A program made the translations under genes and the position numbers. 64,000 nucleotides of DNA, taken from Heptranchias perlo. Lineage: Eukaryota. Shown here in pieces: positions 19,949 through 60,687 of the stretch. The stretch's first letter is position 1. Each line of letters begins with the position of its first letter. The notes beneath the pieces are model-generated. The model was not told the DNA's origin. It ran no database searches and saw nothing but the letters and a program-made list of their open reading frames with translations. The DNA lies in NCBI RefSeq assembly GCF_035084215.1, contig NW_027139453.1:8866001-8930000 (forward strand), in the 5' to 3' direction.

Positions 19949-20017
19949 CTTCGTCAGAAGCAATCGGTCGGTTGCAGCTTTGCAGGTTGTGAGTTACCCT
20001 TGGAATTAGCAGATGGA

Positions 20018-31886: not shown

Positions 31887-31932
31887 TCAGCATCATAAAG
31901 TAAACAGAGAAGACGAGGAAATTTAATCACAT
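31887..31932 (-). pseudogene. TRBV: V2 leader exon with a stop at codon 2 (M*LNFLVFSVYFMML)
   Basis: 46 nt and phase-1 GTATG donor like the V1 and V4 leaders, but reads ATG TGA. Confidence 0.78.
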
Positions 31933-32009
31933 CTTTGCGGGTTTCTAAGACACGTTCTGCTGCTTGTTCTGGCTTTAAGGGTGCGACCCAGGGTACATGC
32001 AAAATCGAA

Positions 32010-32032
32010 CGTCACAAGCGGAAGTGGCGTCA
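32010..32032 (-). promoter_or_regulatory. V2 promoter CRE-ETS-CRE composite
   Basis: Plus strand CGTCA-CAAGC-GGAA-GTGG-CGTCA. Confidence 0.75.
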
Positions 32033-32447
32033 AGACAACGATCTCTGTTCCTGTCGTTAAGTTATAATATTATCAGAGAATTAAATTATCCATTTGTTTG
32101 TTTCTTTCTCTCTTTCTTCCTTCCTTTCTGCCTTCCTTGTTTCTTTATTGTGTTCTGTCCTTTCTTGCTTTCCTTCCCTCTTACATTATTCACCTGCCTT
32201 TTCCTTCTTTCGTTTCTTTCCTTCTTTCTTTCCACCTTTCTATCTTTCTATCTTTCCTTCCCCTTTCCCAATTCACCCTACACTTTTGCATCTCTGCAAA
32301 TTTCTTCATTTTAGTTTCTCTTCAAGATGTTTTCAAGTAGAAGCGAGCAGAACATTAAATGTAGCATGGAGTGTGAGGTGGCTCGTCAAACGACTGTGTC
32401 TCGGTGACAGATTTTGTAAGGGCGCCCGATTTGTCTGCGGCACTGTG

Positions 32448-32756
32448 CACCATCACCAGCTGCACAGAAATAATCCGCCGCATTTGAGGGGTTAACGCTC
32501 TGAATCTTCAAACTAGACATCTTATCGTTCATAGTGCGTGTGATTTCAAATCCAGTTTTGAAACCATCTTCATATTCAGCTTTGCTGCTTCTGTAAATAT
32601 ACCCAATGATCGTCAGTCCTTGCCCAGCGGACTGCTGGTACCAGAGCATGTTATCTCGGGCTGTTCCATTCTGATAACAATTTATCTCGGCCTCTCCACC
32701 CTGGACAACAGCAATCGAACGGGGCCACTGATGTATCACATCCGCCAGCGGACAGT
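32448..32756 (-). CDS. TRBV: TRBV exon V3 (IHQWP...NC...WYQQ...YFCAAGD), apparently functional
   Basis: Open frame; acceptor TTTACAG; RSS CACAGTG 32441-32447 / 23 / ACAAAATCT 32409-32417. Confidence 0.95.
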
Positions 32757-33239
32757 CTGTAAAAGAGAAGTGAGATTTTTTTTAAAATCGGATAAAATTA
32801 AGAAATTTTCTTCGCTGTTCAACTTTTGGCCTGGGCGTGCAACTGGCATTGCAGAGCCGCGCCTGTATAACGGGCGGCCGATACGCAACGCTGGTTCTAT
32901 GATTTAAAATATTCCCGGATATCTCTGGGATTATCGACAAATTATCAATAGAATCGCAATTTTCTTGCAGTTAGGTAAGATAAAAAAGGATTATTTAAAT
33001 TTCATTTATAATGAGAACAATTTATACATCAATAGACAGTAAAACAGCTAAAATCACTTTAAGCAATCAATAGGCAAAAAGCTTACAGTTTAAAATAAAT
33101 TATCGATATTTAATAATTGATTGCTCATATATTAATGCTCGATAATAATATTAAGGCATGGCACGATGTAGTTTAGTAAATATTTTCGGTGGTAATGTGA
33201 TATTAGAATAACACTTATAATCATTTAACGTTATCTTAC

Positions 33240-33288
33240 ACGGCAACAGAAATAAAAGAGCAAAGAACAGCAAACACAAATGCATCAT
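33240..33288 (-). CDS. TRBV: V3 leader exon (MMHLCLLFFALLFLLP)
   Basis: Hydrophobic; phase-1 GTAAG donor 33235-33239. Confidence 0.9.
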
Positions 33289-33370
33289 TGAAGGCAATCG
33301 ACGATATAATGCGGCAGATGAGGCCTGACAGAAATTGCGACGCTGATTCTTATGCATATGTAAAATGAAA

Positions 33371-33393
33371 CGTCAGAACAGGAAGCTGCGTAA
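33371..33393 (-). promoter_or_regulatory. V3 promoter CRE-ETS-CRE composite
   Basis: Plus strand CGTCA-GAACA-GGAA-GCTG-CGTAA. Confidence 0.72.
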
Positions 33394-34429
33394 ATAAAAG
33401 GAAAGAATTTGCATTGATACAGCGCCTTCCGCGACCTCGGGCCGTCCCAAAGCGTTGGACAGCCAATTAAGTACTTTTCGAAGTGTAGTCACTGTTGTGA
33501 TGTAGGAAACGCGGCAGCTAATTTGTGAACAGCATGATCCCACAAACAGCAGTGTGATAATGAGTTCCCCTCATCTCCTCATCTGGTCTTTTTACCAATT
33601 ACCTTAAATCTGTGTCCTCTGGTTACCGACCCTTCTGTCAGTGGAAATAGTTTCTCCCTATCTACTCTATAAAACTCTTCACAATTTGAACACCGCTATT
33701 AAATTACACCTTAACCCTCTTTTCTCAAAGGAGAACAATCCCAATTTTGACATCTTTCCTAAATTGTGATGGCCAGAATTGGACACAATACTCCAGCTGA
33801 GTCCTAACCAATGATTTATAAATGTTGAGCATAACTTCCTTGCTTTTGTACTCTATGCCTCTACTTATAAAGCCCAGGATCCGATACGCTTTTTTAACAG
33901 CCTTATCAACTTGTCCTGCCAGCTTCAAAGACGTGTGCTTGGAAACTCTCAGGTCTCTCTGATCCAGCACTCCTTTTAAAATATGTACCCATAGCCTCGC
34001 CCTATCCTTTTCTGCCAACCATCCGCAGCCTACATCCCCCTGCGCTGCCTTTGGCCTCCAATGCCGGCTTTCTGTGCAAAACTTTCCCTTTACCCACTAA
34101 TGGTAACAGAGCAATCATATTCTCCAAAACAACTTTTATTGATATAGCGCCTTCACCGAGGACAACACGTCCCAAGGCGCTTCACAGGAGATTATCAGAC
34201 ACAATTTGTCACCAAGCCACACGAGGAGATAATAGAATAGGTCACCAAAAGATCGGTCAAAGAGGTAGGTTTTGAGGAGATCATTGAGGGAGGCGGAGAA
34301 GCGGAGAGGTTTTGGAGGGATTTCCAGAGCTCACGGTCCAGGCAGCTGAAAGTACGATCGCAAATGATGGAGCGATTAACAACAGGGATGCGCAAGAGGG
34401 CAGAATTGGAGGAGTGCAGTGATCTCGCA

Positions 34430-35070
34430 GGGTTGTGGGGGCTGAAGGTGGTTACGGAGATAGGGAGGGGCGAGGGCCATGGAGAAATCTCGTAGGGTTG
34501 TAGGGCCGGAGGACGTTGCAGAGATAGGGAGGGGCGAGGGTAATGGAGAAATCTCGTAGGGTTGTAGGGGCTGGAGGAGGTTACAGAGATAGGGAGGGGC
34601 GAGGGCCATGGAGAAATCTCGTAGGGTTGTAGGGGCTGGAGGAGGTTACAGAGATAGGGAGGGGCGAGGGCCATGCAGAGATCTCGGAGGGTTGCATGGC
34701 CGGAGGAGGTTATGGAGATAGGGAGGGGCGAGGGCAATGGAGAGATCTCGGAGTGTTGTAGGGCCGGAGGAGGTTACAGAGATAGGGAGGGGCGAGGGCC
34801 ATGCAGAGATCTCGGAGGGTTGTAGGGCCGGAGGAGGTAACAGAGATAGGGAGGGACGAGGGCCATGGAGAGATCTCGGAGGGTTGTAGGGCCGGAGGAG
34901 GTTACAGAGATAGGGAGGGGCGAGGGCCATGGGGAGATCTCGGAGGGTTGTAGGGCCGGAGGAGGTTATGGAGATAGGGAGCGGCGAGGGCCATGGAGAG
35001 ATCTCGGAGGGTTGTAGGGCCGGAGGAGGTTACAGAGATAGGGAGTGGCGAGGTCCATGGAGAGATTTGT
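34430..35070. repeat. 64-bp tandem array (~10 copies) amplified from inside an L2 fragment
   Basis: Unit starts at 34801, 34865, 34929. Confidence 0.92.
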
Positions 35071-36849
35071 GAACAAGGATGAGAATTTGAAAATCAAGGT
35101 GTTGCCAGAAGAAGGGGCAAAAATAATTTATTCATTTATCTCATAGTTTCTCTTCATTTTTCACGACTAACTCTGTTCTGCACTATAGCCCTTGAAACTT
35201 CAACTAAGTTTCCGATATGAAAACGGCGCCTCCAAGTATTAAAGTAAGTTGCCCCTGTTATACCAGAGCTCCCCACAGCGATACTTGATAGAAGATGATT
35301 GCATTGAAACGAAAGGTCGTGATGGCTATGGTAAAGTCGCAGCCTTCACGTATAATGATACATTATCGTCGGTTTTAACAAAGAAATTAACTAGTTTCAA
35401 ATAAATTAATGCCAGAATAGCAGATAGAAGAATGCCATGCACGTTAAGCGTGCGAGGGTAATATCAGGATGATAGATCTGGCAGTCCCTGGATCGTTTTT
35501 GATCCAGTGGAAGGTGATATTTCTGAACTTATATGATTGTTGAGACTCGATGAAGTAACTTTAGACAATAGAACGTATGTAAGATATAACCAATTCCCTC
35601 TCACCCACTGTATGCTTAATACACCACCCCCATCTGGTTCAAATCTATGAATTAAGTTAAGTTCCTATTTTTCATCCAGGTGAATCAATAAAAGAGTAGA
35701 ACTATCAATGAGAGTAAATTTAATAATATTCCAACTATATTGATATTATTTTGAAACGGTTCAGGAGGCGCCATCTCTACAAACGCTTTAGAAATGTTAC
35801 CCTTAATTATTGGGGATTCAGGTGGTTTCGAGACCGAACAGATTCAATCACGGGAAAAGAAATAAACATTTAACGTGTAAACAATACTTATAAACACATT
35901 GGCGTTAATGAATTCGAACAACACCAACAATTAGAAGAAAGAAGGAACTTGCATTTCTAATCACGCCTTTTACGATCTCAGGACGTCCCAACGCGCTTAA
36001 CAGCCAATGAAGTATTTTTGATGTACAGTCTCTATTTTAAAGCAGGAAAACCGGCACTAATATGCGAACAGCAAGATCCCACTGTAATGAGATCACTTTT
36101 AGTGATGTTCGTTGAGGGATAAATATTGGCCCAGGACACCGAGGACAACTCTCATGCTCTTCTTCCAATAGTGGCCGTGGGATCTTTAACGTCCACCCCC
36201 GAGGGCAGAAGGGGCCTCGGTTTAACATCTCATCCGAAAGACAGGAATCTCCGACTGTGCAGCGCTCCCTCAGTACTGCCCCTCCGACAGTGCAGCACTG
36301 CCTCAGTACAGCCCCTCCGACAGTCCAGCACTCACTCAGTACTGACCCTCTGACAGTGCAGCACCAGCTCAATACTGCTCCCCCCGACAATGCAGCATTC
36401 CCTCAATACTGACCCTCTGACAGTGCAGCGCTCCCTCAGTACTGAACCTCCGACAGTGCATCGCTCGATCAATACTGACCCTCCAACAGTGCAGCACTCA
36501 CTCAGCAGTGACCCTCCGACAGTGCAGTACTCCCTCAGTACTGACCCTCCGACAATGCAGCACGCCCTCAGTAGTGACCTTCCAACATTGCAGCGCTCCC
36601 TCACTACTGACTCTCCAACAGTGCAGCGCTCCCTGAGTAATGACCCTCCAACAGTTTTGCACTGCCTCAGTACTGACACTCCGACAGTGCAGCGCTCTCT
36701 CGGTACTGATCCTCCGACAGTGCAGTGCTCCCTCAGTACTGCCAAGAAGTCAAGCAAACCGCAGGATTTGGAGAGTTTTTGGAATCAGCAAAAGGTGACC
36801 AAAGTGTTGATAAAGTGGGAGATATTAGAATGTAAGATTTGGACTTAAA

Positions 36850-39800
36850 GGAAAGAGGGTAGCGAATGGAAACGTGAGCCCCTTAGAGGCTGAGACAGGG
36901 GAAATTATAATTGGGAGTAAGTAACTGGCAGAGACGTTAAACACATATATTGTATCTGTCTTCACAGTGGAAGATACAAAAGATAATGGGGATCCAAGGG
37001 TCTTTCGAGAGTGTGGGACTTAAAGTAATTAATATTGGTAAAGAAAAATTAATGGAGAAATTAATGGGACTAAAAGCTGACAAATCCACGGGACCTGATG
37101 GCCTACATCTGAGGGATCTAAAAGGGGTGGCTGCAGAGATAGTGGATGCAAGGATTGATAGTTGTGATCTATCAAAATTCACTAGATTCTAGAATGGTCC
37201 CAATGGATTGGACGACAGCAAATATAACAACGCTATTCAAGAAAGGGTGAGAGAGAAAGCCTGAGGGGGAGTTAGCCTGACATCAGTCGTCTGGAAAATG
37301 CTGGAATCCATTGCAGTAACATGGCATTTATAGAATCTTAATATGATTAGGCAGAGTCAAGAGAGTTTGATGAAAGAGAAATCGTGTTTGACAAATCTAT
37401 TAGAGTTTTTTAAAGATGTAACTAGCAGCGTAGATAAAGGGAACCAGTCGGCGTAGTGTATCTCGATTTTCAAAAGGCATTCGATAATTTGCCACACAAA
37501 AGATTTATCACACAAGATAAGGGCTCATGGGGATGGGGTGATATATTAGAATGGAAAGAGGATTGGTCAACGGACAGAAAGCAGAGAGTCGGGATGAACG
37601 TGTCATTTTCAGGTTGGCAGGCTGTATCCAATGGGCTGCCAAAAATATTGGTGCTGGGGCCTCAGCTATTTACAAACTATATTAATGACTTAGATGAAAG
37701 GACCGAGTGTGATGTATCCAATTTCGCTGGCGATAGAAAGATGGGTGGGAAAGGAAACTATGAGGAGGACACCAAGAGTCTTCAAAGAGATATAGACAGG
37801 TTAAGTGAGTGGGCAAGAAGGTGGCAGATTGAGTATAATGTGGGGAAATGTGGGGTTATTTACTTTGGTAGGAAGAATAGAAAAACAGAATATTTTTAAA
37901 TGGTTCGAAACTGTTCAATATTGGTCTTCAGAGAGATTTGGGTGTCCCTGTACACGAAGCATAGAATGCAGGTCCAGAATGCAATTGGGAAGGCAAATGG
38001 TATAATAGACTTTATTGCAAGGGGACAGTCAGGAAGTCTTGCTGAAATTGTACAGGGCTTTGGTGAGACCACAATGTGCACAGTTTTGGTCTCCTTACTT
38101 AAGGAAGGATAAATCTGTCTTACAGACGGTGCAACGAAGGTTCACTAGATTGATCCCTGGGATGAGAGGTTATCCTATGAGGAGAGATTGAGTAGAATGG
38201 TCCTATACTGTCTCGGGTTTCGAAGAATGAGATGTGACCTAATTGAAACATATAAGATTCCGAGGAAGCTTGACAAGGTGGATGTTGAGAGGCTGCTTCC
38301 CCTGGCTGGAGAGTCTAGAACCAGGGGTCATAGTCTCAGGATAGGGGTTGCAAATTTAGAACTGAGATGAGAAGGAAGTTCTTCACTCAGAGGTTTGTGA
38401 ATCTTTGGAATTCCCTACCCCAAAGGGCTGTGGATTCTGAGTCGTTGAGTATATTTAAGACTGAGATAGATAGATTTTCGTCTCAAGGGGAATCAAGGGA
38501 CATGGGGATCGGGCGGGAAAGTGGAGTTGAGGTCGAAGATCAGCCATGATAAAATTGATTGGCGGAGTAGGCTCGAGGGGCCGTATGGCCTACTTCTGCC
38601 AATAGTTCCTATGCTCTTATGTTCTTATGCACTGCCTTCACCCCGCCAAACATTGCGGTACTCCCTCAGTACTGCCCCTCCCACAGTGCAGCACTGCCTC
38701 GTTACTGACCCTCCGACAGTGCAGTACTCCCTCAGTATTGAACATCCGACAGTGCAGCCCTCGCTCAGTACTGACCCTCCGACCGTGCAGCCCTCCCTCA
38801 GTACTGACTCTCCGACATTGCAGCACTCGCTCAGTACTGACCGTCCGACAGTGAAGCACTCCCTCAGTATTGGCACGAGGAGTGTCGACCTGGGATTGTT
38901 GGGCTCGAGTCTCAGGAGTTTCATTCGAACCCACGACCCTCTGACACGGAGGCTCATTGATTTCTGCAACTCAAAAAAGAGGCTCGGTCCCAGCTGCCTT
39001 TTGGTTACCTTTTTCTGAAGTTATAACCTTCCTTCTTATTCCCAACAATATCAGATTTAAATGAGAACAGAGGCAACGTTTGTTTGCATATTTGTAGGAC
39101 TTCTATCACATTCAGTAACGATCAGCGTAGAAAACAAGGCTCCGTTGCTTTCCTGCAAACCATATCATGTCTCGACATACGTCACAAAAAGTCTCGTTAC
39201 GTCATGCCAATTCACGGTACATGCAGGCACAGCAAGCAATTAGAAAAGTAAATGGCATGTTGGCCTTTATTGCAGGGTGGTTTGAGTACAAGAGTAAGGA
39301 ATTCTTGCTGCAATTGTACAGGGCTTTGGTGAGACCTCACCTGAAGTACTGTGTACAGATTTGGTCTCCTTATCTAAGGAATGATATATTTGCCATATAG
39401 GCGGTGCAACGAAGGTTCACTAGATTGATCCCTGGGATGAGAGGGTTGTCTTATGAGGAGATAGATTTCCTCATTAAGATGGAGAGTGAAGTAGTTGAAT
39501 CCGAAATTATGTTCCTGGATCTAAATATAGGAAATTACGAAAGTATGAAGTGCGAGTTGGCTATGATTGATTGATGAACTTTACTAAAAGGGATGACGGT
39601 GGATAGGCAATGGCTAATATTTAAAGAACGTGTGCAGGAATTACAACAATTATTCATTCCTGCTGGTGCAAAAATAAAACAGGAAAGGAGGCTCAACCGT
39701 GGCTTACAAATGAAATTAGAGATAGCATTAGATCCAAAGAGGAGGCATGTAAAATTGCCAGAAAAAGCGGCATGCCTGAGGATTGGGAGCAGTTCAGAAT

Positions 39801-42030
39801 TCAGCAAAGGAGGACAAAGAGATTGATTAAGAGAAGAAAATAGAGTATGAGAGTAAACTAGCAGGGAACATAATAACTGACGATAAAAGCTTCTATAAAT
39901 ATGTGAAGAGAAAAAAATAGTGAAGACAAATGTAGGTCCCTTGCAGTCAGAAATGGGGGAAGTAATAATGGGAACAAAGAAATTGCAGAACAATTAAACA
40001 CATACTTTGGTTCTGTGTTCACAAAGGAGGACACAAATAACCTGCCAGAAATCTTAGGGAACCAAGGGTCTGGTGAGAGGGAGGAACTGAAGGAAACTAG
40101 TATTAGTAAAATAAATAGTGCTAGGGAAAGTAATGGGGCTAAAGGTTGTAAAATCCCCAAGGCCTGATAATCTACATCCCAGAGTACTAAATGAAGAGGC
40201 CGTGGAAATAGTGGATGCATTGGTGATCATCTTCTAAAATTCGATAGATTCTGGAACAGTTCCTACAGATTGGACGGTGGCAAACGTAATCCCACTATTT
40301 AAAAAAGGAAAGAGAGAAAAAACAGGGAATTACAGACCAGTTAGCCTAACATCAGTATTGGGGAAATTGCTGGAGTCTATTACAAAAGATGTGATAACAG
40401 AACACTTGGCGGGGATTAACGGGATTGGACAAAGTCAGCATGGGTTTATAAAAGGGAAATCATGCTTAACAAATCGACTGGAGTTTTTTGATGATGTAAC
40501 TAGTAGAATAGATAGGGGAGAACCCGTGGATATGGTGTATTTGGATTTTCAAAAGGCTTTTGATAAGGTCCCACACAAGAGGTTCGTGTGCAAAATTAAA
40601 GCACGTGGGATTGGGGGCAATATACTGGCATGGGTTGAGAATTGGTTGACAGACAGGAAACAGAGAGTAGGAATAAACGGGTCTTTTTCCGGGTGGCAGG
40701 CAGTTACTAGTCGGGTACCGCAGGGATCAGTGCTTGGGCCCCAGCTATTCATAATATATATCAATGATTTGGATGAGGGAACTAAATGTAGCATTTCCAA
40801 GTTTGCAGACGAAACAAAGCTGGCGTGGAATGTGAGCTGTGTGAAGGATGCAAAGAGGCTCCAATGTGATTTGGACAAGTTGGGTGAGTGGGTAAGAACA
40901 TGGCAGATGCAGTAAAACGTGGATAAATGTGAGATTATCCACTTTGGTTGTAAAAACAAAAAGGCAGAATATTATCTGAATGTTGATAGGTTGGGAAAAG
41001 GGGAGGTGCAGCGAGATCTGGGTGTCCTTGTGCACCAATCGCTGAAAGCGAGCATTCAGCGGCAGCAAGCAGTTAAGAAGGCGAATGGTATGTTAGCCTT
41101 CAATGCAAGATGATTTGAGTACAGGAGCAGGGATGTCTTACTGCAGTTATACAGGGCCTTGGTGAGACCACATCTGGTGTATTGTGTGCAGTTTTGGTCT
41201 CCTTATCTGAGGAATGATGGCATGCCATGGAGAGAGTGCAATGATGGTTTACCAGACTGATTCCTGGGATGGCAGGACTGACGTATGAGAAGTGATTGGG
41301 TCGATTAGGCCTATATTCACCAGTGTTTAGAAGAATGAGAGGTGATCTCATCGAAACATATAAAATTCCAACAGGATTAGACAGATTAGATGCAGGAAGG
41401 TTGTTCCCGATGGCTGGTGAGTCCAGGACCAGGGGTCACAGTCTCAGGATATGGGGTATGCCATTTAGAACCGAGATGAGAAGACATTTATTCACTCAGA
41501 GGTGGGTGAACCTGTGGAATTCTCTACCACAGAAGGCAGTGGAAGGGATCAAAGGATATGGGGTAAAAGTGGGAACGGAGTACTGAGTTAGACGATCAGC
41601 CAGGATCACTTTGAATGGCGGGGCAGGCCCCAGGGTCCGAATGGCCTACTCTTCCTCCTATTTTCCATGTTTCTATGTTTCTATTAAATTTTGAGTAGAA
41701 TGGGCTTTTTCTGTCTGGTGTTTCGAAGAATGAGAGCTAAACTCATTGAAACATATCAGATTCTGAGTGGGGTTGACAGTGTAGATGCTGAGTGGATGTT
41801 TCCCCTGGCTGGAGAGTCTAGAAGTCGGGCGCATAGTCTCAGGATAAGGGGTCGGCCATTTAGACTGAGATTAGGAGGAATTTCTTCAATCAGCGAGTTG
41901 TGAATCTTTGTAATTCTCTACCCCAGAGGGCTCTGGATGCTCAGTCGTTGATTATATTCAAGGCTGAGGTCGATAGATTTTTCGACTCTCGGGGAATCAA
42001 GGGATATGGGGATCGGGCGGGAAAGTGGAG
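36850..42030 (+). mobile_element. Series of degenerate CR1 RT/3' fragments
   Basis: ORFs 37456..37899, 40277..40915 (YRPVSLTS, YLDFQKAFD, FADET) and 41296..41586. Confidence 0.88.
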
Positions 42031-43034
42031 ATAAGAACATAAGAACTTAAGAAATAGGAGCAGGAGTAGGCCAGCCGACCCCTCGAGCCTGCTCCGCCAT
42101 TCAATCAGAGCATGGCCGCTCCGTATCTTAACTCTATTCACTATCTTGGTTATGTAACCTTTAATAAGCTTTGCTAAGAAAGATCTATCAATCAGTTCCA
42201 GATTTCCTCTAAACTTAGTGTGAAGAAGTTCTTCCTGACATCACCGCTGAACGGCCTAGCTCTAATTTTAAGGTTTTGCTCCTTTTTTTCTAGACTCTCC
42301 CAACCAGCGGAAATAGTTTCCCTTTATTTACCTTATCAACTGCTTTAATCGTCTTAATCACCTCAATTAGTTCAGCCCTTAATCTTCCATACTCGAGCTT
42401 ACCTAATCACATAGCATTTCATAAAATTTACAGCACAGAAACAGGCCATTCGGCCCACCTGGTCTTTGCCGGTGTTTATGTTTCACACGAGCCTCCGTCC
42501 ACCCAACTTCATCTCACCCTATCAGCAAATCCCTCTATTCCCTTCACCCTCTTGTACTTATCCAATTTCCCTTGAAAATAAACTTTTCTATTCACCTCAA
42601 CTATTCCTTGCGGCAGCGGGGTCCACATTCGAACCACTTTCTCAGTTAAAAGGCTCCTCCTGAATTCCCTATTGCATTTATTGTGACTATTTTATATTCA
42701 TGGCCCCATGATTTATACACCCCCACGAATGGAAACATCTTCTCTACGTGTAACCTATAAAACCCTTTCATGATCATAGAGATCTCTAGAAGGTCAACCT
42801 AACGTCATTATCACATTGTTATTTTGGGGATTTGCTGTGTGTAAACTGCTTACCGCGTTGTCCTATCTTACAACAGTTACCACACTTCCTTAAACAATGT
42901 ATTTCACTGGCTGTGAGGCACTATGGGACGACATGGGGTCATGAAAGGCCCTTTATAAATGCAAGGCCGTTCTTTCCTCACGTTGCAACGCGGTGGGTTT
43001 TTGACTGGCCGTTGAACGAGTCTGCATCGCTGTG

Positions 43035-43337
43035 TATCTGCAGTCGCACAGTAATACACCGCCGTGTCTGCAGGTGCGGCCCTGGGCACCTTTAGACTAG
43101 AGTTTCTATCACCGTTTCCAGTAATTTCAAAATGGGTTTGATCCTTCTCTTCGTAATGAATCGTTCCTCCGACTTGTATATAGCCGATCAAGGTGAGACC
43201 TTGTCCAGCCGATAGGCGATACCAGAGGATGGATTGAGGTGTAGCGTCCCGTTCATAGCAGTTTATTGCTGCGAGTTTGCCTTCGGGAATCACCAGTGTT
43301 AGTGGCCTTTGAAGAGGCAGCAATCCTTGCGTTGGAT
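43035..43337 (-). CDS. TRBV: TRBV exon V4 (LQRP...NC...WYRL...YYCATAD), apparently functional
   Basis: Open frame; acceptor CATTAG; RSS CACAGCG 43028-43034 / 23 / TCAAAAACC 42996-43004. Confidence 0.93.
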
Positions 43338-44108
43338 CTAATGAAACAAAGGAAGAAAATTTATGGAATCAGACGGTACGGAAGGAGGCCATCCGGCCCA
43401 CTGTGCTGTGCTGGCTCTCTGCACGAGATATCTAATTAGTCCCACGCATATCTGCTCTTTCCCCATGGCCCTGCAAAGTTCTCCCTGTCAAGTATATATC
43501 GAATTCCCATTTGAAAGTTACAATTTAATCTGTTTATCACAGTATCATATTAGGTACTGCACAGGAGGAGGCTATTCGGCCCATCATGCCTGTGGCGGCT
43601 CTTTGAAATAGCTATCCAATTAGTCCCACTCCGCTGCTCTTTCCACATAGTCCTGTATATTTTTACCCTTGAAGCATTTATCCAATTCCATTTTGAAATT
43701 TCCGATTCAATCTGGTTGCATCACCCTTTCGGACAGTGCATTCCGGATCATTGCAACTCGCTGCGTAAAAAAGGCATTCTCCTCATCTCACCTCTGCTCC
43801 TTTTGCAAATTATCTTACATCTGTGTCTAACATTTGTAGCGAAATGTCGTGGCTCCGCCAGAAGAACAACTCAATTGCAAGTGAAATAAGTCCCAACAAC
43901 ATCCGATCAACATGTAACATGTATTATCTTAACTCGCTCCATGTCCCGTTCACCTAACACCCCCTGTGCTCGCTGATTTCCACTGGATCCCGGTCCACCA
44001 AAGCCTCGCTTTTAAAATTCTCAGCCTTATTTTCAAATCCCTCCGTGGCCTCGTCCCTCCCTATCTCTGTAACTCCAAAAAAGTCTGATTTCAATGCAGG
44101 ATACTCAC

Positions 44109-44154: not shown

Positions 44155-45427
44155 TTTGGATGGAAAATTCCCGAATCCGTTGCTGCAAAGATCGTGTTCT
44201 CACACCGAGTGCCTCCGATTGGATCAGAATTGCAGTCCAGGTCCGCACCCAAGCCATGCCCCGGAAGTGACATCTTTTCCACGGAAGGCACGTCGACGTT
44301 CGCGTTGCGTCTTGCCTTTCAATCGTGCGTTGGTGCTGGTGTTTTCTGCGGATAGTTTAAAACATAAATTTCGGGCTGAGGACAAAATGGGCGTAGATCA
44401 GAATTAGTCTGTAACAACCACAATGCCACCTTGCATTTCTAAAGCGCCTTTAACGAGAGCTTTGGGAAGCACAGGTCCAAAGTCACATGTTCCTCCTACT
44501 TTCAACAAGTCATGTCTCGAAATACTCAGAGACTGCATTGCAGAATGTTATTTATAATTGGGCTAGAAATGTCTGCCGTGGGTCAGTTGGTATCACTCTC
44601 ACCTTTGAGTCAGAATTTTCTGGGAGCTGGGTTCTGGCATTCCCAATCCAAAGATTTGAGCCCCGGATTCTGCCTGACGCTCCAGTGCAAAACTGAGGGA
44701 GTGCTGCACTGTCAGAGGGTCAGTGCTGAGGGAGTGCTGCAATGTCGGATGGACAGCCCTGGGAGAGCGCTGCGCTATCAGAGTGGCAGTACTCAGGGAG
44801 CGCTGCATCGGCGAAGGGGCAGAGCTGAGGGAGCGCTGCACTGTCCGAGGGTCATGACTGAGGGAGCGGTGCACTGTCGGAGCGTCAGTACTGAGGGATT
44901 ACTGCACTGTCGGAAGGTCACTACTGGGTTAGTGCTGCACTGTCAGAGGCTCAGTACTGAGGGAGTTCTGCTTTCTGGGAGATGACTCTTTCGGATGAGA
45001 CGTTAAACCGACGGCCCCTTTTGCCCTCTCAGGTGGGTGCAAAAGATTCCAAGAAGATAGTCTCGAGGAAGAGCAGCGGTGTTCCCCCCCGCCCCCCACC
45101 CGGTGTCCAGGGGCCAAAATTTATCCGTAAACCAACATCACTAAAATGATCAGATGATCTGGTCATTATCAAATTCTTGTTTGTTGGATCTTGCTGTGCG
45201 CAAATTTGTTGCTGCGATTCCTACGTTGCAACAGTGACAATACTTCACCTAAAAAGTACGTCTTTGTCTGAAAAGCGCCTTGGGACGTCGAAAGCGCTTT
45301 AGAAATATAAATTCGTTGGTTTGTTTAGTGAGTTGTTCACATGATACCTGGTCACGGGTGGTAATAAGTTCACGGCGGGAAGATGGGCGTGTTTTGTATT
45401 ATACTGCGGCTGGTTTGGGTCACTTTG

Positions 45428-45715
45428 CGATAATCGCCCAACAGTAATAGCTCGTAGAATCTGTCAGCTCGGAGCCATTCAGGTGCAGGGTAAAGGGTTT
45501 TTTTGATGCTTCAAGTTGCGCTGCGAATCAGTTCGGGCCCAAAGCTGCCTTACTCATTGCACATTCACCCTATTGCCTCTCTCCCTTGCCTGTTCCAGGA
45601 CACGCTGTGGTTGCTCATGCTCGCTCTCTTCAAACTGCAGCCGACAGTGAGTGGTTCTTAATGTCGAATAGCTGCCTCGGTGGATGACTGGACCACAGTG
45701 GGTGCAGCCCGAAAC
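45428..45715 (-). pseudogene. V pseudogene V5 (PTVVQS..*EPLTVGCSLKRASMSNHSVSWNRQ..*FAAQLEASKKPFTLHLNGSELTDSTSYYCWA), V-delta-like
   Basis: Cys/Trp/YYC framework with stops (45658-45660, 45565-45567, 45528-45530) and a frameshift; heptamer mutated to CAAAGTG 45421-45427 / 23 / ACAAAACAC 45389-45397; missed by the ORF track. Confidence 0.85.
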
Positions 45716-45914
45716 CTTAGATTAGATATTAAACAAAATAACAATGACAAAAGCCAAGAGAGGACCGAACTGTTCAAGTGAAGCATGAGACAAGGTTGCT
45801 CTCCTTCCCGATAACTTTCGCTTCTACACTTTGTGTCTGAGCCCAGTCGCTAACGTTTCTTCTATGGTGATGGAGCGATGCAGGCGAGCAGAGTCCGGTT
45901 ACATCCACGTCCTG

Positions 45915-46420
45915 AAACACACACACACTCACAAGCGCACAAACACTGACGCACAGATACACACTCACACATGTAAACATACACACATGCACACCAACAC
46001 ATACATACACACAGAAACGCTCTCAAACTCCGACACAACCACACACACGCACTCAGTGACACACACACAGAAGCACGTCAAACACATCCAAAAATATACA
46101 TACAGACACATACGTACACACATACACACTCTCACGCACACATGCTCACACAATACACTCACACATGCACACACTGAGACACACAATACACTCACAAACT
46201 CACANNNNNNNNNNNNNNNNNNNNNNNNNNNNNNNNNNNNNNNNNNNNNNNNNNNNNNNNNNNNNNNNNNNNNNNNNNNNNNNNNNNNNNNNNNNNNNNN
46301 NNNNNNNNNNNNNNNNNNNNNNNNNNNNNNNNNNNNNNNNNNNNNNNNNNNNNNNNNNNNNTCACACACAAACTCACACACACATTCACTCTGACACACA
46401 CTGACACACACTCGCACACT
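45915..46420. repeat. (CA)n-like microsatellite containing the assembly gap
   Basis: CA-rich tract; N run 46205-46361 (157 N). Confidence 0.97.
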
Positions 46421-48049
46421 CAAATAAATACATGGACTTTCCATCGGGAAATATTGCCTTCAGCAGCCGGAGTTGTACATAATTTGAACTCTGCAGCCCA
46501 CGGTAAACTGAAACCAACCTTAAGAGCGAGGGCGGACAACTCAGTGCAGGCCCAAGATAAAATCTGGGTGATCCGCTGGCCTGTAAGGAACAATACCTGG
46601 CCGAAACCGGATATTGTTTTCATGGCAGCTGGGAGAAGCTAAGCTCCAGAACTAATTAAAATAAATGATTGAAATAGTAACATTTTGTTCGATTCCAACT
46701 GTCTTGCAAACTAATTTCCCGTCATAGATTAACACGGGTTCGGTTTTAAGGTGTCAGCCTTGGCTGAGATGCTAGCACTTTCGCCTTCTGAGTTACATGG
46801 TTGTGGGTTCAATGCTCCCGACAGGGACTCGAGCACAAAATCCAGGGCGATGCTCCTGGTCAGTACTCAGAGAGTGCTGCACTGTTGGAGGTGCCGACTT
46901 TTGGATGAGACTTTAAACCGAGGCCCTCTCAGGTGGACGTGAACGATCCGACAGCCACTAGAAGGGGAGTTCTCGCTGTGCTTTGAGCCAATCGTTACCT
47001 CTCAACGAACATCAATAAAAAGGAAGTTATCTGGTTATTATGTCATTGATGTTTGTGGGATCTTGCTGTGCTCAAATTGGCTGCCATATTCCCTACATTA
47101 CAAGAGTGACTGCACTTCAAAAAGTACGTCAATGGTTGTGACGCGCTTCAAGCCGTCCTGAGATCACCTGATGACAAAACACTTCCACAAAATCCATTGT
47201 CTGAGCGATAAGGTGACAAAGATTGAGGCCATTCGACTTGAGAAACACACGGCCTTTCTCGCGAGGAGACAGGGAGCGTTATTTATCGACAACAGCAAAA
47301 TTGCTCTCACTCAAGGGAAATGCCAGCGGATGTGACGAATTACGCTGGAAAACCGACGAGCCAATCATGTGGTTGGATCACAAAAGTCAACAGATTGAAC
47401 AAATGAGAAGCATTTCCTGTGATGCCCTTGTGTTTGCGAAATCCTGAACACGGGTTTAAGACAATAGAATCGTAGTACCTTACAGCACAGAATGAGGCCA
47501 TTCGGCCCATCGTGCCTGTTCCGGCTCTTTGAAAGAGCTCTCCAATTAGTCCCGCTTCCCACGCTCTTTCCCCACAGTTCTGTAAAACTTATGTTCGTTA
47601 ATTCTAGCAAAATTGCCTAGGTTATGACATCTATCTCTTTCTTTAGTTCTTCCTTTCTTTCTTTCCTTCTTTATTTATTTTCCATCATTCCTTCCTCATT
47701 TAGTCAGCTCTGAGCAAAAACTAAATTGGATTTGATATTCCACCAGCGTTCTCCAAGTTTCCTACCAGAGCTTGAACGGGAGAGGGCTGTGAAGGGGAGT
47801 ATTAGGAAAAATAACTTCACAATACAGAAGTCGGTATTAATATCTTTGTATTATAAGAATGTTCCCGTGGGATCGAAGCTTAACATATGGTTTAGATTAG
47901 GTTGTTAGCATTGCACAGGTGAAAGCTAAGCAAGGAAGGAGATGTCAGTTAAAGGCAATTTAAGAAGCTGGTTTGTGTAAAGAATTATAGCCTATTTTGG
48001 AGACAATATCTCTTTGCTTCAGTTGTTATCATGCTATTCAGGTGTGATG

Positions 48050-51000
48050 TGTCAGGTGGGAAAGTAAGCTGTCAGGAGGACTCAAAGAGAGATAAAGACA
48101 GGTTAAGCGAATGCCCAGGAAGGTGGCAGATGGAGTATAATGTAGGGAAATGTGAGGCTATTCACTTTGGTAGGAACAATAGAATAACAGAAAATGTTTG
48201 AAATGGTGAGAAAATATTAAATGTTGGTGTCCAGGGAGTTCTGGGTGTCCTGGTACAAGAAACACAGAGAGTTAGCATGCAGGTGCAGCAAGCAATTAGT
48301 AAAGCAAATGGAATGTTAGCCTTTATTGCAAAGGGGTTCGAGTGCAAGAGTAAGGAAATCTTACTACAGTTATACAGAGTTTTGGTGAGACCTCACATGG
48401 AGTACTGCGTACAATTTTGGTCTCCTTATTTAACGAAGGATATAGTTGCCTTAGTGGCGATGCAACAAAGGTCCACGAGATTAATTCCTGGGATGAGAAG
48501 GTTGTCCTGTTAGGAGAGATTGAGTAGAATGGGCCTATACTCTCTGGAGTTTAGAAAAAATGAGAGGTCATCTCATTGAAACATATAACATTCTGAGGGG
48601 GCTTGACAGGGTAGGTGCTGAGAGGTTAATTCTCCTGGCTGGAGAGTCTGGAACTATGGGTCATAGTCTCAGGATAAGGGGTCGGCCATTCAAGACTGAG
48701 ATGAGGAGAAATTTCTTCAATCAGATGGTTGTGAATCTTTGGAACTCTCTAACCCAGAGAGCTGTGGATGCTGAATTGTTGAGAATATTCAAGGTTAAGT
48801 TAAATAGACTTTTGGACTCCAGGGGAATCAAGGGAATATGGGGATCGGGTGGGAAAATGGAGTTGTGGTTGATGATCAGCCATGATCTGATTGAATGTCG
48901 GAGCAGGCTCGCGGGGCCGTATCACCTACTCCTGCTCCTATTTCTTATGTTTATAACTATGCAGAATTGTCTCAACTTCTCTTGATAAAACATGGAATGC
49001 CTTCCAATTCCACTGAGAATGGAGTATAAGTGTTGCAACGTTGCCAACTAGTGGTGCAGTAGCATATGACAATTAAGGACCGCATAATAATAATTTCGAA
49101 AGTGATAGGTTTAAAGAAAGTAACGTGTCATTACCTCGGATGTGTCTTTCAGGCATAAAAACCTGTACTGTTTTCAGCAATTCTTTGCTATTCAGTGCTG
49201 AGATTTATTAGAATTTCACACACCCCGATGGATACAAACGTATATAGTTTCTTTTTCAATGTGTGGCTATTAATTAAACCAACAAATTGATCTAACTCAG
49301 GCGTGGGGAATTATATCATTTGGATAAGACTACTCCGTTGAGTTAACATAGTGCAGACCCTCCCACTCGAGCTACAGTGGGATATCGGGAGAACCACTGC
49401 CGAATTTCCAGGACATTGCGGGTTTTCCCCTCGCTTTTTTTTCTGCCGACACGTAATCCTAACACATGAAGGCTAGGCTGAGGTGTTATTACTACGAATT
49501 AAACATGAGTCAGTGAGAAAGAAAGACATTTATACAGGGCTTTCAGGAGGCAAAGCGCTTTACAGCCAACAAAGTATATTTTTTGAAGCGTGGTCACTGT
49601 TGTAATGTAGGTAACGCGGCAATCAATTTGCCCACAGCAAGCTCCCACAAGCAGCAATACAACAATGACCAGATAATCTGTTCTGTAGTGAGGTTAGTTG
49701 AGGGATAAATGTTGGCCAGGACACTGTGGGGATCTCCCCTGCTCTTAGATTCATAGAATCTTATCCTCTTACAGAAGGAGGCCATTCAGCCCTTTGTACC
49801 AGTGCTGGCTCTTTGAAAGAGCTGTCCAATTTATTACCACACGCTAGCTTTTTCTCCATAACCATGCAAATGAGTCCTCTTTAAGTACATGTCCAATCGC
49901 CTTTTGAAAGCCCCGATGGAATCTGCTTACACCCCCCACCCACTTTCAGGGAGTGCGCTCTATATCATAACAACACTCTGTGTGAAAACATTTCTCCTCA
50001 TTTCCCCTCTAGTTCTTTGGCCAATTATTTTAAATCTAAGACCTCCTATTACCGCCCCACCTTCCAGAGGAAACCGGCTCTCCCTACTTGCTCCATCAAA
50101 ACCCCTCATAATATTGAAAACTTCTATTAGGTCTCCCTATAACTGTCCCTGCTCTCAGGAGAACATTCCCAGATTCTCCAAATTCTCCACATAATTGAAG
50201 TCACTCATCCCTGATATCATCCTGGTAAACCTCCTCTGTGCTTTCTCCAAGGCCTTGATATCCTTCCGAAAGTGCGGTGCCCAGAATTGTACGCAATACT
50301 CCAGCTCAGGCCTAACCAGTCATTTGGAAAGGTTTATCATGACTTCCTTGTTTATATATTCAATGCCGCTATTTACAAACCAAGTTTCCCATACACTTTC
50401 TTCACCACCTTTTCAACTTGTTCCCCCACCATCAAAGATTTGTGAATATTAAACCCCCTCTGCTCTTGCATCCCCCTCAAAAAACGACTTTAGATTATAT
50501 TGCTTCTCAATGTTGTTCCTCTCAAAGTGCATCACTTCACACTTAAACGCATTAAATTGCATCTGCAATATGTCAGCCCATTTCACTAGTCTGTTTATGT
50601 TCTCCTGAAGTTTGTTACTATTCTCCTCACTATTTACTACGTTGCCAAGTTTTATATTATCAGCAAACTTCGAAATTTTACTCCCTATACCCAAGTCCAG
50701 ATCAATTATATATAACAAGAAAAGCAATGGTCACGTTACCGACCCCTGGGGGACCACACTGCATACTTTTCTCCAGTCAGAAAAACATCCGTTCACAACT
50801 ACTCTCTGCCTCCTATCCCTTAGCCAATTTCCCACCGAAGTTACAACAGCCCCTACAATCCCATGTGCTTCTATTTTCCGAATCAGTCGATTAAATTTGT
50901 GACTTCATCAAATGCTTTTTGAAAGTCCATATATACAAAAGCTGCTGAGCTACCTTAATCAACCGTCTCTGACCCTTCATCAAAGAACACAATCAGGTTA

Positions 51001-51060
51001 GTCAGACACGATTTGCCTTTCGCTAATCCGTGCTGGCTGTCCTTTATTAACCTCTGCTTC
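48050..51060. mobile_element. CR1 fragments (+ 48050-48955; - ~49750-51060) with a SINE piece between
   Basis: [12 protein letters not shown] and SKFADNIKL motifs. Confidence 0.8.
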
Positions 51061-51991
51061 TCCGAAGTGAGACAATAGTGGCCGTGGGATCTTTTACATT
51101 AACCCGAGAGAGCAGGGACGGGGTTTTGGTTTAACGTCTCATTCAAAAGACGGCACTTCCGACAGTGCGGCACTCCCTCAGCACTGGGCTGGAGTGTCAA
51201 TCTAGATGTTATACTCCAGCCTCTGGAGTTGGACTTGAACCCACAACCTTCCGAGTCAGAGGTGATAGTGTTACCAACTGTGGCTCGGCTGACACTGAGA
51301 GCTAGTTATTTAAAATATGTTCTTTGCATCGAAAAAGTCAGATAGATAAAGGAAAGACCTGGAAGTGCGTAGCTGAAGTATATTAGACGTTAGTGTATTC
51401 GAGAGCCCTGCGTTCGATTCCTGATGGAGTGATCGGGCGAATTCTCCTCTATGTATTGGCTGTGAATGTCCATTCCAAATTTAGTTCGGATCGCTTTCAA
51501 TGGATAACAACAACTTGCATTTATATCACACCTTTAATATTGTAAAATGGCGCTTCACAGGGGCGTTATCAAACAAAATTTGACAGCGAATCATGTAAGG
51601 AGATATTAGGACAGGTGGGGCACCTTTTAAGGAGCATCTTAAAGATGGTGAGAGAGGTAGAGAAGCGGAGAGATTTAGAGAGGGAATTCCAGAATCTAAG
51701 CCAAGGAGTGCTGAAAGGCACGGCCGCCAATGGTGGGGCGAAAGGAGTGACAGGATAGAGAAGAGGCCAGAATTGAGGGAACGCAGAGATCTCGGGGAGT
51801 TGTAGGGCAGGAAGACGTAACAGGGATAGGGAGGTGCTTGGATTTGAAAACAGTGATGAGAATTTTAAAATGGAGCCGTTCCAGGACCGGAAGCCAATGT
51901 AGGTCAGCGCACACAGAGGGTGATGGGTGAACGGGACTTAATTCGACTGTGAGATTTTGTCTGGACATCCTCAGATTTTAACAACGCTGTG

Positions 51992-52264
51992 TGCATCCTT
52001 GCGCGCCGAACAGTAATAGGTGCCGCTGTCTTGGCTGCGAGAGTTTGTCAGGGGCAACATGAATTTGTTGTTTCCAGACTCCAGTTTAAACGCAGTCCTT
52101 TTTCTGTACTCAGATGCAAAAAATATATCCGATCTGCTTGTACCAGTAAAACCAATAGTCGCTTATGTTGCCCTCCCTGATGCGTCAGTAGAACGTAACT
52201 CCCTCCCCTGGGACCAGGACGGTGGTCACCGGGGACTGGACGATGAGGCGTTGGGGCCGAACAC
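51992..52264 (-). pseudogene. V pseudogene V6 (RLIVQSPVTTVLVPGEGVTFY*RIREGNISDYWFYWYKQ..ESGNNKFMLPLTNSRSQDSGTYYCSARKD), V-delta-like
   Basis: Cys23 codon is TGA (52185-52187); internal deletion/frameshift; acceptor CTTAG; RSS CACAGCG 51985-51991 / 24 / ACAAAATCT 51952-51960; possible ATG-less leader relic ~52749-52794. Confidence 0.87.
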
Positions 52265-53159
52265 CTAAGAGATTATAAACAAAAAAGAAGGGCAGAATGA
52301 GCAGGAGTGGGCAAGAGGGTCGGCAGGGAGGCCCAGAGGAGCAGAGGCAGGAACAGAAGAGAGAGAGAAAGAAAGGAAGCCCAAATAGTAGGCACGGAAC
52401 GCAAAGCTACCTTCACACTTATGTTTACTCTACAGGTTAAGTCCAATAAAAGGTCAGGTTTATTGAACAGATTAAATTATAAATGCGCGTAAATGAAAAG
52501 GACAAAGACAAAGAAGCTTGGTCCGGCTGGTAAAGACGTGAATTAAATAATGTTTGGGGTGGGTCTACTCATCAGATCAGTTATTGCACCACTGATCAAT
52601 CGTGACTAGTTCTCTTCTCAAACAACATCAGCTTATTCCAATTTGCTTCACCAAGAGTAGTAAATAAAGCAATAAATCATCATTACAAACAGTACACGAT
52701 TTCAATTGAACAAAATGTGGATTGAAACGTTCGCTCTCTCGGACATACAGGAAATGGAGAGCAGAAATATGGAAAGCCAATAAACAGCGACTAAGAGCTC
52801 AGCCTCTTTCACAAAACAATCCCAAACTATTTGAACTTGAGTTGAGCTGGCGCTCTATAAAGAGGGTCATAACGCCGCGATTGCCGCTGTGGGAAGTATT
52901 TGTAAATAACAAAACCGCTTCTCCCCTCGGGAGCGCCGATCGCAAAATTGCGCACTCCCATCCACTATTCGTTACCATGTTCGCCCCGACCACACCGCAC
53001 GAGTGGAACCATTAATGGGAACAGAGCTTTCCAGTCACAGACCTACCCAGCGTTGCTCTCAAATCCGTTTAATAGATGGATACAATCATCAGAAATCCAG
53101 CCCTTGCAGCCGTTCTCTTATCAACCTCTGCATGATAATATAAGGCAATCTCTCCGCGG

Positions 53160-58580: not shown

Positions 58581-58649
58581 GGGAGACGGTTCACTGCATC
58601 CTGTTCTGTTGCTTTTCGTCTCAGAGTTGGGGTGTTTCCACACGCCGTG

Positions 58650-58943
58650 CATCACTGCACCCGCAGAAGTAGACGGTAGTGTCCCACGGGGAGGTTACAG
58701 CGAGTTCCAGAGTAAACTGGGCATCGCTGGGACTCTGAGCGACAAATGGTTCGGTCGTGTAATTAGAAACGTGGCCCGCACCGACCGATTGGAAAAGAAG
58801 GGCGGGTTCCCGGTTTGCTGCTGGTCGGCACCAGAATATGGTGGGATCGTTAGTGTTCTTCAGGATACAGTACATTACCACTGATTTTCCGGAATGAACA
58901 GAAACAATAGTCGGTGTTTGTTCAACGAGCGAAGTGCACACAC
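58650..58943 (-). pseudogene. TRBV: TRBV exon V7 (LVEQTP...YC...WCRP...YFCGCSD), open frame but defective splice acceptor
   Basis: ORF 58621..59016; RSS CACGGCG 58643-58649 / 23 / ACGAAAAGC 58611-58619; expected acceptor reads AA|GT where paralog V8 has AG|GA. Confidence 0.85.
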
Positions 58944-59670
58944 TTTGCAAATGGAGGAAACAGTCAGGTTTGTTTTCATAGAATCGTAGAGCGAAGAAAG
59001 AGGCCATTGGGCCCATTATGCTTGTGCCGGCTCTTTGAAAGAGTTACCCAATCTGTCCCACTCCCCAGCTCTTTCCCCATAGCCCTGTACATTTTCCCGT
59101 GAAGTATTTATCCGATTCCATTTTGAAAATTACTGTTGAATCTGCTCTCACCGCCCTTTCAGGCAGTGCATTCCAGATCATCACAACTCATTGCGTAAAA
59201 ATATTATTCTCATCTCCCCTCTGGTTCTTTTGCCAATTATTTTAAATCTGTGTCCTTTGGTTACCGACCCTTCTGCCACTGGAAACAGTTTCTCCCTATC
59301 TACTCTGTCAAAACCCCTCATCATTTTGAACACCTCTATTAAATCTCCCCTTCACCTGCTCTGCTCGAAGGAGAATAACTCCAACGTCCCCAGTCTCTCC
59401 ACGTAACTGAAGTCCCCCAGTCCTGGTAACATTCGGGTAAATCTCCACTGTACCCTCTCTCAGGCCTTGATATCTTTCCTATAGTCTGATGCCCAGAATT
59501 GACCACAACGCTTCAGCTGAGACCTAATCGTAGATGTATAAAGGTTTTGCAGAATTCCTTGGTGTTCTACTCAATACAGATCTGTGTATTCGAGGATTAA
59601 TCCATCCTAAGCAAAAAACATATTGTGAAACATACCTTTCTTTCCGACTTTTAGCTCGGTTTTGAATTAC

Positions 59671-59731
59671 CATAAATGAATGCAATCGACCAGAATAAAT
59701 ATGACACTTGGACAAGCAAGTTTAGTTCCAT
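59671..59731 (-). CDS. TRBV: V7 leader exon (MELNLLVQVSYLFWSIAFIY)
   Basis: ccATGg start; 61 nt; phase-1 GTAAT donor; TATA-like sequence ~59801 and TGACGC ~59826 upstream. Confidence 0.72.
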
Positions 59732-60578
59732 GGATAAGCACAGGGTGATGGAGCCTGTGTGGGAACATCCAGTCCGGTCCTTTCTCCGCTGCTGAGTCGT
59801 AATATATATGAAGCGTTAGTTTGTGGCGTCATTTCTCAGCCGTGGCGAGAACTACCGCCTCTGAGTCATCAGGTTGTGGGTTCAAGCCCCGCACACGAGA
59901 ATTTAGCACAGAAACCAGGCCGGCACTACCGGAGCGACTAATAAGGGGGTGCTGTAAGGACTGTACTGATGGAGGGCAGTACTGAAAGAGTGCTCCACTC
60001 TCGGAGGGTCAGTATTTACGGTTTGGAAGGGCAGTACTGAGGGAGTACTGCACTGTTGGAAGCGCAGTACTGAGGGAGTACTGCACTGTTGGAAGGGCAG
60101 TACTGAGGGACTACTGCACTGTTGAAAGGACAGTATTGAGTTAGTGGTGCACTGTTGGACGGGAAGTACTGGAGCACTGCACTGTCGGAATGTCAGTATT
60201 GAAGGAGAGCCGCACTGTCGGAGGGGCAGTAATGAGGGAACGCTGCACTGTCGGAATGTCAGCACTGAGGGAGCGCTACACTTTTTGGAATGTCAGTACT
60301 GAAGAAGCGCTGCACTGTTGGCGGGTCAGTGCTGAGGGAGTGCTGCACTGTTGGAGCGGCAGTACTGACGGAGTGCTGCACCATTGGAATGCCCTTACTG
60401 AGGGAGCTCTGCTCTGTAGGAAGGGCAGTAATTAGGGAGTGCTACACCGTGATAGACACTGAGAGCCTGCTGCACTGTCGAAGAGGCAGTTCTGAGGGAG
60501 TGCTGCACTGGCGGAAGGTCCGAAACCCGACTTCCATCGCGTGCAATTTCCATCTGAGCAATTACGTTCCGTCGATTG

Positions 60579-60592
60579 CTGCCACCTGCTGG
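60579..60592 (-). promoter_or_regulatory. CTCF consensus motif 3' of V8 RSS
   Basis: Minus strand CCAGCAGGTGGCAG fits CCASYAGRKGGCRS at all positions, ~57 bp from the nonamer. Confidence 0.6.
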
Positions 60593-60687
60593 CAGAAAAG
60601 AAGCGGTGAATTTCCAGCTGGTGCTGCCAGCTGCCATTCATCCAGTGTGTTTTTTGTAGCTGCGGAGCCACTTTCTCAAACGCTGTG

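Follow-up and report, generated by a model that had tools for sequence, protein, structure and literature searches.

Location and structure of V5 and V6

The window, a 64,000-nucleotide stretch of the Heptranchias perlo genome (positions 8866001-8930000 of contig NW_027139453.1, hereafter C1286), carries a T-cell receptor (TCR) beta (TRB) cluster on the minus strand, with ten V segments in total, numbered V1 to V10. Two of them, V5 (45428..45715) and V6 (51992..52264), are the subject of this work; a first-pass annotation had described them as V-delta-like pseudogenes embedded in the TRB V array. Both do lie inside that array together with eight other V segments, facing D-beta, J-beta and C-beta. 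Four conventional TRBV (V1-V4, 18960..43340, minus strand) are located downstream of V5 and another four (V7-V10, 58649..63800, minus strand) upstream of V6. The potential partner for any V-to-DJ join is a D-beta segment on the minus strand (9526..9600, core 9558-9569), flanked by recombination signal sequences (RSS) with 12- and 23-nucleotide (nt) spacers. Six J-beta segments follow (1400..9080, minus strand), with FGxG motifs at 9051, 8206, 7961, 7219, 4543 and 1422.

V5 is dead. Its V-exon (minus strand) contains three stops (at 45660, 45567 and 45552) and a frameshift near 45528. All three V-set landmarks are kept, namely Cys23 at 45639, Trp41 at 45597 and Cys104, with 13 residues between the first two, 154 nt from Trp41 to Cys104 and a short second complementarity-determining region (CDR2). 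The RSS of V5 (45389..45427, minus strand) comprises the heptamer CAAAGTG, a 23-nt spacer and the nonamer ACAAAACAC. Its orientation is correct for TRB, as reported in the first-pass annotation, which did not mention the broken CAC. The function of an RSS heptamer requires CAC, and the signal is therefore predicted to be non-functional. A CA repeat and a run of N lie upstream of V5.

The assembled V6 (minus strand) is a null copy: its Cys23 codon (52187) reads as a stop, and a deletion at 52129-52136 shifts the frame. Trp41 (52145) and Cys104 are present, the Trp41-Cys104 stretch amounts to 133 nt, and 13 residues, counted from the coordinates, separate the Cys23 position from Trp41. The RSS of V6 (51952..51991, minus strand), also in the TRB orientation, consists of CACAGCG, a 24-nt spacer and ACAAAATCT. 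Splice acceptors are present at both segments.

The resemblance of V5 and V6 to V genes is not a chance one, since the scores on a profile built from V genes of the same genome far exceed the shuffle maxima: the V5 read-through reached 33.3 bits (maximum of 5.1 among 500 shuffles) and the V6 read-through 31.9 bits (maximum of 7.5 among 500 shuffles). The Pfam V-set match of V6 scored 23.2 bits, under the cut-off of 26, and the V5 pieces gave no Pfam match. The assembly holds one V5 and one V6 with no close copy of either elsewhere in it, and no copies were found in the second TRB cluster, the inverted V array or contigs C94 and C885 described below.

Other versions of V6 in sequencing reads

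V6 is not a lone relic: it is one copy of a multi-version family, a result that goes beyond the first-pass annotation. Public sequencing runs from one sample (DNA run X1 and putative RNA runs X5, X6 and X7) were compared with V6. In X1, four V6 versions were found over 52004-52113: one resembles the window copy, and the other three have 9, 12 and 15 differing letters. Four versions in one sample require at least two loci. Cys23 is restored at 52185 in every X1 and X5 contig, and the stop is therefore either unique to the assembled copy or due to an error of assembly. Loose contig ends of both DNA and RNA at 52129 and 52136, on both sides, indicate a loss of sequence from the window copy at a repeat of 8 nt (52129..52136, minus strand). 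The lost stretch would be 26 nt, as estimated from the 3-letter overlap of the loose ends and the restored frame, and is consistent with a microhomology deletion. The undeleted versions would thus have 53 codons from Trp41 to Cys104.

The differences listed among the V6 versions, those near contig ends being outside the listing, create no stop, and the other versions appear to be full-length open frames. One version in X5 has a canonical 23-spacer RSS with ACAAAAACT. Divergence among the V6 versions is about 10%, with the intron counted, and the TRB duplicates of this genome differ by a similar 3-15%; the other versions presumably sit in further TRB duplicates missing from the assembly. The V6 family is probably still alive.

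Loop layout

A catalogue of 180 V genes was compiled from the shark's own genome; 800 kb of TRA/D and 100 kb of TRG were covered, as were TRB and samples of IgH and IgL. The Cys23-Trp41 loop has 13 residues in V5 and V6 versus 10-11 in 16 out of 16 TRBV measured, which bears out the longer loops noted earlier; the V5 and V6 peptides quoted in support are also present. The Trp41-Cys104 stretch (53 codons inferred for undeleted V6) is 56-59 codons long in the same 16 TRBV. The very short CDR2 that had been ascribed to both segments is thus partly an effect of the deletion in the window copy of V6, and the undeleted V6, still shorter from Trp41 to Cys104 than any TRBV measured, would have a short CDR2 too. 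The 13/53 layout as a whole is absent from this shark's TRBV.

The 13-residue loop occurs in all measured IgH (3/3), IgL-lambda (4/4), IgH-like V at TRD and sigma-cart genes. IgL-lambda of this shark has a 13/55 layout, and therefore the combination of a long CDR1 and a short CDR2 is not delta-specific. The genome also has a delta V gene at C240:826095, adjoining D-delta and J-delta (at about 22 kb), with a 14/55 layout; it is labelled TRDV2-like on the basis of a motif. This gene belongs to a D-delta-proximal cluster (C240:817691-826095) of four Ig-like V genes and one TRDV2-like V.

Sequence similarity

In a frameshift-aware alignment against 175 of the shark's own V genes, the best V5 score was obtained with TRA/D (75) and TRB was the lowest class (maximum of 46), whereas the best V6 scores were with Ig-type genes (94, 86, 85 and 84), TRB reaching 74. 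Class profiles were also compared. For V5, the TRA/D profile scored 30.2 versus 16.0 for TRB, which was among the worst; for V6, the scores included IgH-like (33.1), sigma-cart (30.3), TRB (28.7) and TRA/D (22.8). The best own-genome match of V6 is an Ig-like V of the delta-proximal cluster (30% identity), and its identity to IgL-lambda and sigma-cart V is 28-30%. V5 and V6 align with each other with no internal gaps at 26% identity, and over framework columns they are mutually best matches (34%). Identity to the TRDV2-like gene is 19% for V5 and 22% for V6, which leaves it outside the top 15 for either segment. By these comparisons V5 leans towards alpha/delta and V6 towards Ig-like genes.

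Searches of public proteins yielded no orthologs. The 5′ piece of V5 gave 12 candidates among longer proteins, none of them scored; the V6 read-through gave no candidate at near lengths; and the TRDV2-like gene aligned with V5 pieces gave 27 candidates, none at E ≤ 0.001. The 5′ piece of V6 drew 22 matches among 1.84 billion representatives, in which inspection revealed no V6 ortholog; they are multi-domain Ig-type and repeat proteins and one lambda-like V array. These negatives are weak, since germline V genes are often unannotated as proteins and the queries are short and broken; the intact TRDV2-like gene likewise drew no match. Sequence searches of the PDB were dominated by multi-domain antibodies, also for the intact control, and allowed no classification.

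Phylogeny

For the trees, V genes of the catalogue more than 75% identical to a kept row or shorter than 84 residues were dropped, leaving 76 rows plus V5 and V6. A 54-row set kept 18 of the 38 TRA/D rows and lost three near-duplicates. The sampling comprised shark V genes exclusive of IgL-kappa and IgNAR, with no mammalian or bird TRDV or other non-shark V.

None of the four maximum likelihood (ML) trees placed V5 or V6 within TRB. The first gave them no firm position. In the careful full C20 tree, they formed the grouping (TRDV2-like,(V5,V6)) at 88/87, composed of three long branches, and the 10 TRB rows made up a 90/87 clade that excludes them. The third tree placed V6 with the Ig-like V at TRD and V5 among TRA/D. 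The framework-only tree, from which the CDR columns were dropped, placed V6 with IgL-sigma and V5 again among TRA/D. The grouping with the TRDV2-like gene is therefore missing from three of the four trees, the framework-only tree included. Together with the loop layout and the class scores, the trees suggest that the origin of V5 and V6 would lie outside the TRBV clade.

Age of residence in TRB

At the DNA level, V5 and V6 gave only 23-28-nt matches in the 800 kb of TRA/D and the 100 kb of TRG. A recent transfer from either locus was rejected on this ground, and any transfer would therefore be old. The 3′ ends of the two segments are beta-like. In V6, GAT precedes the CACAGCG heptamer; GAT before the heptamer was found in 7 of 14 TRB and 10 of 137 TRA/D genes, and the CACAGCG heptamer itself in 5 of 14 and 8 of 137, respectively. 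The 3′ end of V5 resembles that of V8. Combined with the lack of close copies, these ends are likely a sign of long residence in TRB.

Transcription and joining

Contigs of the putative RNA run X5 cover 51945-52778 with non-deleted V6 versions. They include the V6 upstream intron and 5′ region (52265..52778, minus strand), which a contig of an approximately 90% identical version covers unspliced. The X5 contigs total 115 M letters, as compared with 1,914 M in the DNA contigs, a difference that speaks against genomic carry-over; two of the X5 variants do not occur in X1. Neither X6 nor X7 covers V6, which by itself is no evidence on expression. The X5 signal would correspond to sterile transcription of an accessible V, and the other versions of the V6 family are likely intact and likely transcribed. 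The first-pass annotation saw in V5 and V6 pseudogenes that could once have formed V-delta/C-beta hybrids; both window copies are indeed broken, and for V6 this description is an understatement. The intact members joined to D-beta/J-beta/C-beta for which it recommended a search did not appear: the read contigs over V6 are germline contigs only, and no V-D-beta-J-beta join and no hybrid chain was seen in them. The lack of junctions in contigs is uninformative, because contigs drop rare junctions.

Origin of V5 and V6

We tentatively prefer, with somewhat less than even confidence, the reading that V5 and V6 represent an old non-beta V lineage of antibody/gamma/delta-type layout settled in TRB, in which V5 is dead and the V6 family likely includes working copies able to join D-beta/J-beta. 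An old V lineage from the Ig/gamma/delta side would have settled in TRB. V5 would then have decayed, and the V6 family would have been multiplied by TRB duplications, becoming polymorphic for a null copy and being transcribed in germline form in one tissue. The joining of RSS is governed by the 12/23 rule, which the V6 copies with a 23-RSS are predicted to obey with D-beta. Joined copies would produce beta chains with a long CDR1, a short CDR2 and a non-beta V domain. A stronger proposal, that sharks keep a multi-copy, expressed V family of the antibody/delta side in TRB, rearranging to D-beta/J-beta/C-beta, appears distinctly unlikely on present evidence.

Several results weigh against the preferred reading. 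V5 and V6 are long branches that shift between trees, and approximately unbiased (AU) tests rejected none of nine constrained placements, TRB included: a clade of TRB with both segments had p = 0.31 (p = 0.28 under a mixture model), TRB with V5 p = 0.45 and TRB with V6 p = 0.40, and the values for V5/V6 with the TRDV2-like gene (p = 0.49) and V6 with the Ig-like V at TRD (p = 0.46) are of the same kind. The TRB profile score of V6 is only 4.4 bits under that of its best class, and the 3′ ends of both segments are, as stated above, those of beta genes. The other V6 versions are absent from the assembly, and the more deeply covered version of the V6 RSS retains the 24 spacer. The identification of X5 as RNA is a guess, with no matching run on record as RNA, and its contigs may represent either strand; they span the intron and the RSS, so that V6 is seen unspliced and unrearranged, with no V-D-J or spliced leader joint listed among contigs that drop such rare junctions. 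A scan that found plausible leaders for five of seven intact neighbours found no convincing leader within 1.5 kb of V5 or V6.

Alternatively, V5 and V6 could be a divergent native TRBV family, or two, in which CDR1 lengthened and CDR2 shortened; intact V6 would then make ordinary beta chains with unusual loops. In favour of a native origin, the AU tests do not reject a TRB clade, the 3′ ends and heptamer are beta-like, and V6 ends in CSAR, as does mammalian TRBV20. Moreover, V5 and V6 share a block with V4, a native TRBV, and the second TRB cluster lacks this block entirely. TRBV of the bamboo shark are divided into 24 named families, with sequences outside the present comparison (PMC10322711). 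Nevertheless, V5 and V6 never fall inside TRB in the four ML trees, TRB ranks last for V5 by alignment and near the bottom by profile, and the layout is found in none of the 16 TRBV. A position of both segments inside known TRBV clades, named in the first-pass annotation as the outcome that would contradict it, was thus not recovered in any tree, yet no TRB placement is rejected by AU. We regard a native origin as somewhat unlikely.

Another explanation, overlapping the others, is that all members are dead or leaderless orphons, and that the RNA is read-through or antisense of an open locus from which no chain is made. V5 is fully broken, the window V6 is null, no leader was found, the contigs are exclusively unspliced and unrearranged, the better-covered RSS version has a 24 spacer, and the TRB region of this genome contains many duplicated fragments. 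Against this, Cys23 and, at the sites listed, the reading frame are intact in at least three other V6 versions, one of which has the canonical 23-RSS, and the absence of junctions from the contigs carries no information. An entirely sterile family is on the unlikely side in our estimation.

The assignment to a TRDV2-like delta clade, with V5 and V6 as relics of V-delta moved into TRB, was proposed in the first-pass annotation and found only partial support. The 88/87 grouping of the C20 tree, the AU value for that placement, the similar 14/55 layout of the shark's own gene near D-delta and J-delta and the TRA/D profile at the top for V5 are in its favour, and a position outside TRB agrees with every tree. 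However, the identity of 19-22% is below that of many Ig and TRA matches, and the grouping is lost in the other trees and upon removal of the CDR columns. All three sequences are long branches, the TRA/D profile of V6 is low, the layout is shared with IgL-lambda, the label of the shark gene comes from a motif, and the trees contained no mammalian or bird TRDV. The reading is improbable, and both the "delta clade" label and the hybrid chain are unproven. A NAR-type identity was rejected; the NAR-TCR V never groups with V5 or V6.

Comparison with known systems

VH-delta and TAILV are Ig-type V genes that lie in the TCR-delta locus or join to it (PMC12227049, PMC12529555). V5 and V6 would resemble them as V genes foreign to the TCR translocon that houses them and equipped with a 23-type RSS, but belong to neither group. 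The constant partner of VH-delta and TAILV is C-delta and their source is the linked IgH/TRA-D complex (PMC12227049), whereas the host of V5 and V6 is TRB, with no close copy in C240:0.8-1.6 Mb. V6 is also unlike VH in its shorter CDR2, its identity of at most 30% and its lack of a stable tree placement. Mammalian TRDV2 and the shark TRDV2-like gene have a long CDR1 and a short CDR2 in common with V5 and V6 (14/55 in the shark gene versus 13/53), but V5 and V6 differ from that gene by low identity, by three trees without the grouping and by beta-like 3′ ends. The 13-residue CDR1 loop is common to V5, V6, IgL-lambda and sigma-cart V; however, of the genes sampled, those of lambda and most of those of sigma-cart form miniclusters with V and J joined in the germline, whereas V5 and V6 are free V segments with a 23-type RSS in a TCR array. 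In the trees V5 and V6 do not group with these genes, apart from V6 with IgL-sigma in the framework-only tree.

Conventional shark TRBV have the same locus, orientation, 23-type RSS and 3′-end motifs; the 16 measured here differ in loop lengths and framework sequence, published sequences being outside the comparison. The NAR-TCR V has a similarly short Trp41-Cys104 stretch and is a V that moved between loci in sharks, but in this genome it is without Trp41, its CDR2 is much shorter, and it has a D-J of its own.

The nurse shark expresses six families of beta V (PMC5931798). For the bamboo shark, 38 TRBV and two D-J-C sets are listed by coordinates only, and an ortholog may be among them (PMC10322711, supplementary file 16). 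V-type mixing between receptor loci is documented for TCR-delta (VH-delta, TAILV, NAR-TCR), and mixing of V genes at TRA/D is described in PMC12227049. The same source argues that VH on TCR-beta would be disadvantageous; in its 2025 model, TCR-beta moved away from the Ig/TRA-D complex since VH on beta would be a disadvantage under MHC restriction. The literature searched, which did not extend to the key nurse shark papers, mentioned no non-beta V genes in the TRB locus of a shark. If a non-beta V family is indeed alive there, it would depart from the 2025 model or be a relic of an ancestral joined receptor complex. If such a family were expressed and rearranged to D-beta/J-beta/C-beta, V-type mixing would be known for the first time from the beta locus, regarded in current models as shielded from it, and the long CDR1 and clipped CDR2 would probably point to MHC-independent or non-classical recognition. 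If V5 and V6 were native TRBV instead, they would nonetheless extend the known range of germline CDR1/CDR2 shapes in beta chains.

Other features of the TRB region and related loci

A seventh J and C-beta exon 1 lie beyond the window end, the latter about 6 kb past it. The J at 1422 (window 1400-1450) has a stop right upstream of FGxG in that frame and is possibly a pseudo-J. V9 is only about 320 nt downstream of the RSS of V10 (window 62844-63800), and leader sharing is possible; the leader scan found no own leader for V9 or V2. Upstream of the window's V genes, the array extends with a family whose ending is CAWS. A second full TRB cluster lies 4 Mb away on the same contig (C1286:4.90-4.98 Mb). 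Its C-beta exon 1 is 100% identical to that of the window cluster, its V genes and flanks are 85-97% identical, the V4-V6 block is absent and one additional V of the V1-V3 family is present.

Contig C94 carries a D-J-C set (13924-27862); it has four J motifs, and its C-beta is divergent, at 70% DNA identity to the window C-beta. No V segment was found on this 63-kb contig. On the opposite strand of C1286, an inverted array of about ten CAWS-family V (8679813-8816232, plus strand) is situated 3′ of C-beta, the family also being present 5′ in normal orientation. Inverted 3′ TRBV have been described in amniotes (PMC11754216) and resemble this array. Six kb downstream of an inverted V, on the strand opposite to C-beta and 37 kb past it, is a C-domain exon that is truncated and represents a third beta-like type (C1286:8822470-8822650, plus strand); no J motif was found between this V and the exon, and the same peptide occurs on C885 near 3826.

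Germline-joined light chains, NAR-TCR V genes and, at the delta locus, Ig-like V genes occur elsewhere in the genome and identify it as that of a cartilaginous fish. The TRA/D region contains two full IgH-type C exons, at C240:1062047 and C240:1105097. TRAV-like V copies with RSS, several of them with stops, are located on a separate contig (C1079:405494) as alpha-type orphons. Contig C885 carries a V1 identical to the window V1, and at C885:10153 the 5′ signal of a D-beta site abuts a 23-RSS with no D core between; this D-less site may be a germline D loss or a signal-type joint.

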